A stretch of 38,845 bases of DNA, from the NCBI GenBank assembly GCA_046761065.1, contig JBHIFL010000041.1, positions 1 to 38,845 on the forward strand, written 5' to 3'. A program made the translations under genes and the position numbers. The notes below the pieces were generated by a model. That model was not told the origin of the DNA, made no database searches, and saw nothing but the letters and a program-made list of their open reading frames with translations. Origin of the DNA: Candidatus Heimdallarchaeota archaeon (GTDB taxonomy: Archaea; Asgardarchaeota; Wukongarchaeia; Wukongarchaeales; JBHIFL01). Positions 4,832-9,478 of the stretch are shown here, in pieces (position 1 is the stretch's first letter; each line of letters opens with the position of its first letter).

Positions 4832-5074
4832 ACTGACTTGGACGAAACAAACAAAACGCAAAAAAGTCATGGCAGCATCGGGCAACAAGTATGATATTAG
4901 TCCCAAATTGACTCTATGACACATCTTTCAAAAAATCAAAGTAAATCTATGAATCTATTAATCTGAAAAATCGAAGGAAGTTTAATTAATCTTGGGACTG
5001 ACAGCGAAATTCGAGGTAATGGATTCTTGTTGAATGGGTATATCTAATTGCCCATCCAAGATACTGCATAAATC

Positions 5075-5201
5075 GCCACCGTAGCTCAGTTGGTAGAGCG
5101 ACAGACTTGTAGAAGCCCAACTGCTTCATGACATCTGTCATGACATGGTAACATGTCATAGGATGACTTGGTCACGGGTTCGATTCCCGTCGGTGGCTCC
5201 A
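5075..5201 (+). tRNA. tRNA-Thr(UGU) with two introns (5112-5132 at 37/38; 5138-5167 at 42/43)
   Basis: Acceptor GCCACCG/CGGTGGC+T+CCA, D-arm GCTC/GAGC, anticodon arm ACAGA-CTTGTAA-TCTGT, T-arm ACGGG-TTCGATT-CCCGT. Removing 21+30 nt gives a 76-nt cloverleaf. Confidence 0.92.
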
Positions 5202-6686: not shown

Positions 6687-8492
6687 ATGCCTATATCCAT
6701 TTCAGGTTTGTTAAAAATTCCCATTATAACTGATTTCGATCTTGATCAAAATGGAAGACATGTGCTTTACTCTTCAAATGAAACCGGGATTCCTCATCTG
6801 TATCTCCTATCTGCTAAGTTGGATTCTAAACCAACGCAAATTACCAGCAGAAAAGACCCCGTAATGGCAGGGGTGCTATCACCACAAGGAGATCAGCTGG
6901 TTTACCCTCAGGATAAGGATGGTAACGAAATACATCAATTGTTCTGGCTTCCCTTAGAAAGGAGAGAGGCTAAACAAATAACCAATACCCCCTATAGAAC
7001 GTTAGGAGTAGATTGGCATCCAACTGGGAAAGAAGTTACTCGAGCTTTTACTTCGATGAAGTCGTGTGGTTTGGAAACATATAACTTGGAGACTGGGGAG
7101 TGCTTCATGCTGAAGGAGCCCACCAAACCGCTTCTAGACCTGCAATACTCTCACGATGGAAAATGGATTGCCTGTACTATAGCTGTAACTTACACAAACC
7201 AACAAGTGTTCATTGTAAATAGAAATGATCCGACAGACACAATTGGCTACAGTATCAAGGATGATTCAAAAGATGTAAGCCCGTCCTGATCTCCTGACGA
7301 TAAGAAGCTGGCTTTTGTAAGTGATGCGAAGGACAGAGGCCAAATTGTTATCCAAGGAGTTCAAGGTGAGGAAAGAATCTTTTTGGAATTGCAAGAGTAT
7401 GAAGAAGTGCCATTATATAGTCAGGCGGTTTGGAGTCCCGAAGGCGATAAGGTGTATTATGTAGTCAGTAAACACAGTCGAACCACCGTCCATGGCCATC
7501 CAATAGCCGGAGAAAAGGAAACCGCTCTACCATTTCCTAAAGGAACCGTTGCGTATATGCCATCGCCTAAAATTAGTAAAGATGGGAAAATGATGGTTGC
7601 TCTCCACTCTTCGATGGCATCTCCTTATCGGCTCTACCTGCACAAAATTGGCACTGAATCAGCAGATCTGCTTACGCCTAGAAATAATAAGGCTGATTTA
7701 ACGCAGCTTGCCCAACCCCGGTCTGTCTGGTACAAATCCTTTGATGGACTTAATATCCATGGATGGTATCTGCCGGCAGTATTCGGAACTATCCCTCGTC
7801 CTGCGGTTATATGTGCGCACGGAGGCCCATGGGGCCAAGTATTCGATGATTGGTTTGATGGGAGCATTCTACACTGTCTTTCCCAAAGTGGCTTTGCATG
7901 TTTGGCTCCGAATTTCAGGGGGTCGACAGGGTATGGGGTGGCGTTTCAAAACATGGATATAGGCGACCCGGGTGGCGGAGACCTAGAAGATGTGGTTTTT
8001 GGCGCTGAATGGCTTCGTAAACAACCAGATGTTAACGGCTCAAAACTCGCGATTATGGGGGCTTCTTATGGCGGTTTTATGACTTTGATAGCGCTTACGA
8101 AGAAGCCTGAAGCCTTTGCAGCAGGCGCCTCCCTCGTACCAGTTGTTGATTGGCTGGAAATGTATCAATTATCCGATTTCTTATTCCGTGAATTTGAGGA
8201 TACGTTATTTGGAGGTCCACCATCAGAAAAAGAGGAGCTTTACCGGGAAAGATCCCCAATCACCCACGTATCTACCATTAAAGCACCAGTCCTGATCATG
8301 GCTGGTCAAAAAGATTCCAGATGTCCAATACAACCCATAGAAAAATTCGTGAACAAATTAAAAGATATGAATCATCCATATGAGTTCATACTGGAAGAGA
8401 AAGCAGGTCATATTTCAACGTTTATGAAATGGGAAGAAAGTATTCCTCTTTTCATCCGCATAATCAATTACCTTGAAAAGATCTTAGTTTAA
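6687..8492 (+). pseudogene. S9-family peptidase (acylaminoacyl-peptidase/DPP-like) with one in-frame TGA
   Basis: ORFs 6687-7289 and 7383-8492 are in the same frame, joined by SPS*SPDDKKLAFVSD (TGA at the expected W of a WSPD repeat). HGGP, NFRGSTGYG, GASYGG, DSRCP and AGH catalytic motifs are intact. Confidence 0.85.
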
Positions 8493-9349: not shown

Positions 9350-9478
9350 TGGTAGCCCGGGGGAGATTCGAACTCCCGTCGCGGGGTCTCCTCAAGGTTT
9401 CACTGCTCAGTGGAACCTTCCAAAGCCCCACATGAATGACCTGTCAACCCTTTGTTTTGGCCTCTACACTACCGGGCT
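9350..9478 (-). tRNA. tRNA-Gln(UUG) with two introns (9436-9456 at ~21/22; 9388-9419 at 37/38)
   Basis: AGCCCGG/CCGGGCT+A+CCA (A1-U72, typical of archaeal tRNA-Gln), TGGGG-CTTTGGA-CCCCG, GGGAG-TTCGAAT-CTCCC. 129-21-32=76 nt. Confidence 0.92.

Follow-up and report, generated by a model that had tools for sequence, protein, structure and literature searches.

A tRNA-Thr(UGU) gene of an Asgard archaeon with two closely spaced introns and overlapping splice motifs

We found that a tRNA-Thr(UGU) gene of a Candidatus Heimdallarchaeota archaeon carries two tRNA-type introns that are 5 bases apart. The gene lies on a 38,845-nt stretch of DNA, referred to as the window, and comparison with orthologous sequences confirmed it as a real two-intron gene. 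Multi-intron tRNA genes and stepwise splicing are already known, and the gene itself is unsurprising. What is new is that the two-intron version is almost unchanged in six assemblies and that its distribution is at odds with the flanking-gene tree. We put the probability of the complete account at roughly 0.8. This account comprises a functional two-intron gene whose transcript would be processed stepwise by EndA and RtcB, a second intron that would have been copied locally, and recombination at the locus.

The tRNA-Thr(UGU) gene and its orthologs

The Rfam tRNA model matched the gene on the forward strand at window positions 5075-5198, with CCA extending to 5201, at a score of 53.7 bits. The alignment opens an insert in the anticodon loop and another immediately 3′ of the anticodon stem. 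ARAGORN reported no tRNA at 5075-5201 or elsewhere in the window; run with its intron option on the whole genome, it listed 19 tRNAs, some of them doubtful and none of them Thr. The acceptor stem pairs 5075-5081 with 5191-5197 (GCCACCG/CGGTGGC), the D arm is regular, and the T arm reads ACGGG-TTCGATT-CCCGT, followed by discriminator T and an encoded CCA. Exon 1 (5075-5111, Rfam match) corresponds to tRNA positions 1-37; it holds the 5′ strand of the anticodon stem, ACAGA, and the loop sequence CTTGTA with the anticodon TGT at 5108-5110, and ends with A37 at 5111. It is followed by intron 1 (5112-5132), by a micro-exon ATCTG (5133-5137) that supplies positions 38-42, and by intron 2 (5138-5167). 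Exon 3 (5168-5201, Rfam match) consists of positions 43-73 (5168-5198) and the CCA (5199-5201). When both inserts are taken out, the sequence folds as a clean cloverleaf, and positions 38-48 of the spliced tRNA equal those of intron-poor orthologs base for base. A single-intron reading was rejected as impossible, because the sole ATCTG(T) able to give positions 38-43 is at 5133-5138.

No second Thr(UGU) gene was detected in the 4.4-Mb, 91%-complete Asgard assembly. As the only Thr(UGU) gene detected in the genome, the window gene should therefore be needed, and we take it to be functional. Some 32 nt upstream of the tRNA, at 5039-5047 on the same strand, lies an A/T-rich box, TATATCTAA, which is partly conserved in an alignment of six orthologous loci and is likely an archaeal TATA element. 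In public data, DNA contigs from the probable source runs show no differences from the window, and a mangrove relative has one-intron-type sequence at the positions matching window 5112-5117. Among the same public runs, none listed as RNA contained this DNA.

Orthologs were reached via the upstream phosphoglycerate kinase (PGK) gene and its close homologs. On the ortholog contigs, the genes for Lhr helicase, MJ1579, PGK, the tRNA and trm112 follow one another in conserved order. Seven of these tRNA genes (L046/L053, L047, L048, L055, L088, L091 and L092) have the canonical intron only, and in them ATCTG runs straight into TTGGTC or CTGGTC. The two-intron architecture is present in six assemblies, namely the window and L045, L085, L086, L087 and L090. 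Together with the two inserts in the Rfam match, the syntenic orthologs that lack the second insert bear out the two-intron tRNA-Thr that a preliminary description had recognised from the letters of the window. The exons are highly conserved: 35-37 of the 37 nt of exon 1 are identical across all close orthologs, and the 31 nt of exon 3 are identical among them save for one base in L088. A metagenome pattern search with the full exon 1 gave no match; the D-loop differs in relatives. The CCA after the discriminator is encoded in the window, L046, L047 and L088, and is replaced by CTC in the L045 group, which makes its presence or absence a second difference between versions of the gene.

Among species-representative genomes the nearest relatives are found only at the order level, and their Thr(UGU) genes have no intron, the canonical intron only, or introns elsewhere. 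In many Hodarchaeota/Heimdallarchaeota the tRNA-Thr(UGU) gene lacks an anticodon-loop intron and has a ~26-32-nt insert in the T-loop instead (L049, L051, L067, L068, L075-L077, L079, L080, L082 and L084). The canonical intron is present in the genes of L054, L056, L061, L063 and L078, the third of which has the T-loop insert too. The same tRNA gene is thus interrupted at different places across related lineages.

Splice motifs and the boundaries of the second intron

Sequence and folding place intron 1, of 21 nt, at the canonical position 37/38. Its BHB motif has an outer helix of 5 bp (the anticodon stem), an inner helix of 4 bp (5113-5116/5123-5126) and the bulges UA↓G and AC↓A. The central helix, CUUG/CAUG, forms three of four pairs (C32-G5130, U34-A5128 and G35-C5127) and has a U33.U5129 mismatch. 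The preliminary description had called this intron canonical, which is right for its position and needs a small correction for its motif, which is slightly relaxed. With three of four central pairs in intron 1, the enzyme evidently tolerates an imperfect helix. The 5-nt micro-exon that the same description had placed after intron 1 was recovered at 5133-5137. The same ATCTG occurs in the intron-poor orthologs, and it is required for the 3′ strand of the anticodon stem.

Intron 2 was delimited by its absence from orthologs and by the Rfam insert. Since the syntenic one-intron genes lack exactly these 30 nt, the boundaries are independent of the splice motif. Motif scoring is not sufficient to place introns here, since a naive motif scan of the precursor returned dozens of BHB-like chance hits; the ortholog boundaries were used instead. 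By sequence alone, the insert could equally be 5139-5168 (43/44), since T5138 equals T5168. The central helix does not pair in this shifted register, and the assignment to 42/43 and the role of C5132 therefore follow from the geometry.

At 42/43, intron 2 has a relaxed BHB motif of the HBh′ type. The 5′ strand of its central helix, CAUC at 5132-5135, pairs with GAUG at 5162-5165 in the sequence and in constrained folds. All four pairs are Watson-Crick, and C5132 is the last base of intron 1. The bulges, U5136 G5137↓U5138 and A5166 C5167↓U5168, have 3 nt each, and cutting 3′ of 5137 and 5167 yields exactly the sequence of the orthologs. The MFE fold contains a hairpin at 5140-5159 with an 8-bp stem (5140-5147/5152-5159) and a GUAA loop; the two stem pairs reported have probabilities of 0.86-0.97. 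An irregular inner helix consists of a single C5139-G5161 pair, a bulged-out A5160 and then the 8-bp stem, and the outer helix has at most 1 bp and is practically absent. The GTAA-capped stem, both bulges and the CATC/GATG helix had all been described beforehand, and each was confirmed in place. The further observation that C5132 belongs to this helix, which is perfect only before intron 1 is removed, also holds; after removal, A37 takes its place and mismatches G5165. We estimate the chance of a 4/4 helix at the ortholog-set boundaries as ~1-4%, from (4/16)^4 to (6/16)^4 with two registers.

Next, we considered whether the 30-nt insert might be no intron at all and would instead be retained as an extra arm in the variable region, or mark a decaying pseudogene. 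The insert sits where class II tRNAs have their long arm and forms a stable hairpin. We regard this reading as very improbable: a fully paired central helix and two 3-nt bulges exactly at the ends of the insert are unlikely by chance, the exons are perfectly conserved in the sole Thr(UGU) gene found, and across six assemblies the insert differs very little, at unpaired positions only. To our knowledge, no class II arm resembles a variable region of 35 nt with an unpaired tail of 8 nt.

Variation within the introns of the six two-intron genes is limited to three positions, 5148, 5151 and A5160, all of which are unpaired in the predicted fold. The hairpin loop with 5148 and 5151 reads GGTAAC in the window and GATATC in the other five genes, and A5160 is replaced by T in L087. 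This last change speaks against a third register, 5140-5164 (25 nt), which needs a U5136-A5160 pair that L087 breaks. We rejected this register, which would leave a 10-nt variable region; it is the costliest in the primary transcript (+10.4) and no cheaper than the 30-nt register after intron-1 removal.

The remaining competitor is a 28-nt register (5139-5166), which would give a mature tRNA with a variable loop of 7 nt, two longer than in relatives, and an extra CU before UGGUC. It has four central pairs (A-U, U-A, C-G and U.G) whether or not intron 1 is present and the lowest energy in constrained folds. Its 5′ bulge, however, is a 3x1 internal loop and not a clean bulge, and the insert-free orthologs have exactly the 5-nt loop TGGTC next to an insert of exactly 30 nt. 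In tRNA architecture, a 7-nt variable loop would also displace G46 and C48. We therefore consider use of the 28-nt register improbable, and keep the 30-nt intron at 42/43.

Folding and the predicted order of splicing

The genome encodes two EndA paralogs (195 aa on contig C15 and 214 aa on contig C2), each with both Pfam domains. Among solved structures, the closest to the first paralog are catalytic subunits of crenarchaeal two-subunit enzymes, namely those of A. pernix, S. tokodaii and P. aerophilum; the second paralog is divergent. The two predicted proteins fit the broad-specificity two-subunit type. The EndA of A. pernix (Aeropyrum) accepts relaxed motifs as well as introns at non-standard positions (PMC3241643). 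An RtcB ligase is also encoded (533 bits). In the proposed pathway, EndA would excise both BHB introns (21 nt at 37/38 and 30 nt at 42/43) in two steps with refolding between them, and RtcB would join the exons. The product would be a normal 74-nt tRNA with the 5-nt variable loop UGGUC, reading ...AUCUGUUGGUC... without an extra CU.

For the intron-1 motif to form, 5134-5138 must be part of the paired anticodon stem; for the intron-2 motif, 5132-5135 must pair with 5162-5165. In constrained folds the two motifs, which share 5132-5138, cannot fold together, and splicing should therefore be stepwise whatever the order. The preliminary description had proposed that intron 2 is excised first. We hold it plausible, as a hypothesis drawn from predicted structures, that intron 2 would leave first through the helix that contains C5132 and that the canonical intron would be removed last. 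Intron 2 is probably the first because its fully paired helix exists only before intron-1 removal. The motif geometry, the local stability and the derived state of C5132 are in keeping with the proposal, whereas whole-molecule folding and the 28-nt register are not.

The local energy of the intron-2 motif is -11.8 kcal/mol, compared to -4.0 for intron 1. Within the whole molecule, a fold constrained to contain the intron-2 motif lies 8.3 kcal/mol above the MFE for the primary transcript and 5.8 above it once intron 1 is gone; the corresponding penalty for the intron-1 motif is 6.0 kcal/mol in either context. The pair probability of the intron-2 helix is 0.0007 with intron 1 present and ~0.07 after its removal. 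The helix of the 28-nt register (AUCU/GGAU, with one G.U pair) does not need C5132, since U5136.G5161 replaces C5132-G5165, and it is 1.3 kcal/mol more stable than that of the 30-nt register in the primary transcript and 3.3 kcal/mol more stable after intron-1 removal. These predicted stabilities weaken the claim that C5132 is needed for any intron-2 motif. Instead, C5132 may be a register-setting base, with the correct register competing best while intron 1 is still present.

Comparison of the gene versions bears on this role. Intron 1 ends in CAAGAA, with a perfect central helix, in all one-intron genes, and in CATGAC in all two-intron genes. By this comparison, C5132 is a derived base, present only in carriers of intron 2. 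All six two-intron genes share one origin, which makes the link between C5132 and intron 2 a single evolutionary event.

A substantial minority share of the probability goes to both introns being real with no obligatory order, or to intron 1 being removed first and intron 2 being cut from a relaxed motif with three central pairs and an A.G mismatch. The intron-2 motif is cheaper after intron-1 removal (+5.8 versus +8.3), its helix probability rises ~100-fold, and transcription completes the intron-1 motif ahead of the 3′ half of intron 2. For intron 1, three of four central pairs suffice. EndA of the two-paralog type cuts relaxed motifs in Crenarchaeota (PMC3241643, PMC5829648), and many Asgard tRNA inserts lack a canonical motif (10.64898/2026.10.13.758758). 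Against such freedom of order, removal of intron 1 abolishes the pair that closes the bulge at the 3′ site, with no outer helix as a substitute, and leaves the 28-nt mis-register 3.3 kcal/mol better. The derived C5132, found only with intron 2, also argues against it, as does the motif-energy rule known from C. merolae.

In this red alga, the free energies of the motifs set a fixed order of processing for pre-tRNAs with several BHB motifs, and the 37/38 intron is the last to go (Soma et al. 2013, PMC3728597). Applied here, the rule that the more stable motif goes first predicts intron 2 first (-11.8 versus -4.0 kcal/mol). The comparison is between unlike systems: C. merolae is a eukaryotic alga whose motifs fold independently and whose order comes from RT-PCR intermediates, whereas the motifs here overlap and the order is predicted. 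The multi-intron or 'nested' pre-tRNAs of Thermoproteales (Sugahara et al. 2007, 2008, as cited in PMC3728597 and PMC4033280) resemble the present case in having 2-3 BHB introns with interdependent motifs, stepwise splicing and a two-subunit EndA. In the nested cases, the motif of the last intron can fold only after the others are removed. The dependence here is the opposite, in that the perfect helix of the non-canonical intron needs a base of the canonical intron while this is still present. The locus also supplies a clean pair of substrates with which to ask if the register in which an intron is cut depends on a base of the intron next to it.

Origin and spread of the second intron

The 9-mer TCATGACAT (5126-5134, forward strand) straddles the junction between intron 1 and the micro-exon. 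As the preliminary description had noted, it is found at both 5126 and 5138, and it has no other copy in the window. Intron 2 contains a direct copy at 5138-5146, an inverted copy at 5153-5159 and a partial direct copy at 5163-5167, such that 21 of its 30 bases are direct or inverted copies of 5126-5134. In conservative dinucleotide shuffles, the repeat of the 9-mer has P ~0.03 and the coverage of intron 2 by its copies P ~0.008. In the five related two-intron assemblies, the intron-2 hairpin is a perfect 20-nt palindrome. The local duplication suggested earlier is moderately supported by the significant repeat, the 21 copied bases and the palindrome in relatives. The event looks more complex than a simple tandem duplication, with both direct and inverted copying. 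Copying could also have run in the opposite direction, from intron 2 into intron 1. In either case intron 2 would be a young, lineage-restricted gain, made up mostly of copies of the adjacent 9-mer.

A short-word BLAST of both introns against the 4.4-Mb genome returned only their own locus. Thermoproteales introns have reportedly spread by transposition between tRNA genes, as Fujishima is said to have described in 2010. Unlike that type, the present introns have nothing similar in other loci of the genome. Local copying is favoured over transposition because of the repeats, the palindrome and the lack of a related intron in the genome. Homology between the introns of the one-intron and the two-intron versions was not significant (P = 0.11 to 0.72).

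To relate the two versions to the history of the locus, we compared them with a tree of the 2.9 kb upstream. In this tree the window is sister to the one-intron L047 (support 93/99), and two one-intron loci, L088 and L091, fall within the L045 group of two-intron carriers (starred support). The same region rejects a single clade of two-intron carriers (AU p = 2e-93). The PGK protein tree alone left the four closest lineages unresolved. As far as exon 1, L090 and L088 show 96-98% identity; beyond it, their introns are unrelated. The window and L090 share 54 of 56 intron bases and 154 of 202 bases of 5′ flank, and one-intron genes at similar flank divergence have introns that are only 78-84% identical. 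This pattern suggests that the two gene versions were most likely exchanged by homologous recombination at the locus. Very strong constraint on the overlapping motifs may have contributed further. Chimeric assembly is a less likely explanation, given that both arrangements are seen repeatedly in independent assembly records.

The locus thus provides a natural experiment, in which either version of the gene, with one intron or with two, is found in lineages whose flanking DNA differs by ~2%. Comparing the versions fixes the exact insert and the bases that changed with it, C5132 included. An insert built from local copies provides a testable idea of how an intron arrives, and the clash with the tree suggests a mode of spread. 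How archaeal tRNA introns arrive is a central open problem according to Goswami et al. (2026 preprint, 10.64898/2026.10.13.758758). As a tentative and rather unlikely scenario, intron 2 might have been born in place by a template-switch type event and then spread by homologous recombination between Heimdall/Hod lineages. The junction of intron 1 and micro-exon would have been copied once directly and once inverted, giving a palindromic hairpin. The same event would yield a second ATGAC 3′ splice-site context and so a ready-made splice motif, and recombination across the conserved exons would have spread the two-intron gene. Such an origin, if true, would show one concrete way in which archaeal tRNA introns arrive.

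The region 3′ of the gene also differs between assemblies. In the L045 group, which includes L085 and L090, a stretch of ~1.9 kb with a zf-C2H2-like gene lies between the tRNA and trm112 (L045:4552-6460), and in L087 a shorter stretch with an 80-aa ORF lies there (L087:3053-3900). Homology of the L045 group to the window stops right after the discriminator, so that the tRNA 3′ end is the synteny breakpoint. We considered an integrative element as the source of the two-intron 3′ part and rejected it on the lack of a second copy of the tRNA 3′ exon; no copy or fragment repeat of this exon was found in the 2.6 kb downstream of L045 or at the other loci.

Published multi-intron Asgard tRNAs (PMC11291895; 10.64898/2026.10.13.758758) share with the present gene the Asgard host, several short BHB-type inserts per gene and non-canonical positions that include the anticodon stem and the variable region. 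They too are missed by standard finders, occur alongside two EndA paralogs and have introns that were gained recently and repeatedly. That work centres on Atabeyarchaeia, Freyarchaeia and Jordiarchaeia, and the present genome is of the Heimdall/Hod type. Unlike the published cases, here a single locus exists in both versions among near-identical relatives, the intron is built from copies, and its distribution conflicts with the flanking tree.

Other tRNA genes of this genome are interrupted as well. A second tRNA in the window, on the reverse strand at 9353-9478 (Rfam, 37.9 bits), has an anticodon region that reads Gln UUG; its D-loop holds an insert of ~25 nt and its anticodon loop one of ~36 nt. 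Further tRNA genes, of 90-140 nt, came to light with the Rfam model and with a crude scan for T-arm and acceptor sequences, and most tRNA genes of the genome are hidden by non-canonical or multiple inserts. One variable-region insert of 24-28 nt each is present in tRNA-Ala(UGC) (L009:1501-1598, reverse strand, contig C1) and tRNA-Glu(UUC) (L011:1501-1602, reverse strand, contig C143). In tRNA-Ala(UGC) the insert is at 45/46, and the 3′ strand of the anticodon stem contributes to its fully paired (4/4) central helix. The genome thus has more than one tRNA gene with an intron immediately 3′ of this stem. L012, a candidate for a second combination of canonical and variable-region introns, was rejected; it is tRNA-Ser(CGA), and its insert is the normal long variable arm. 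Finally, contig C125 carries on its minus strand a 141-nt Thr-like gene with the acceptor sequence GCCACCG, starting at 7195 of the reverse-complemented contig. This gene is probably tRNA-Thr(GGU) and has an apparent insert inside or beside the anticodon.
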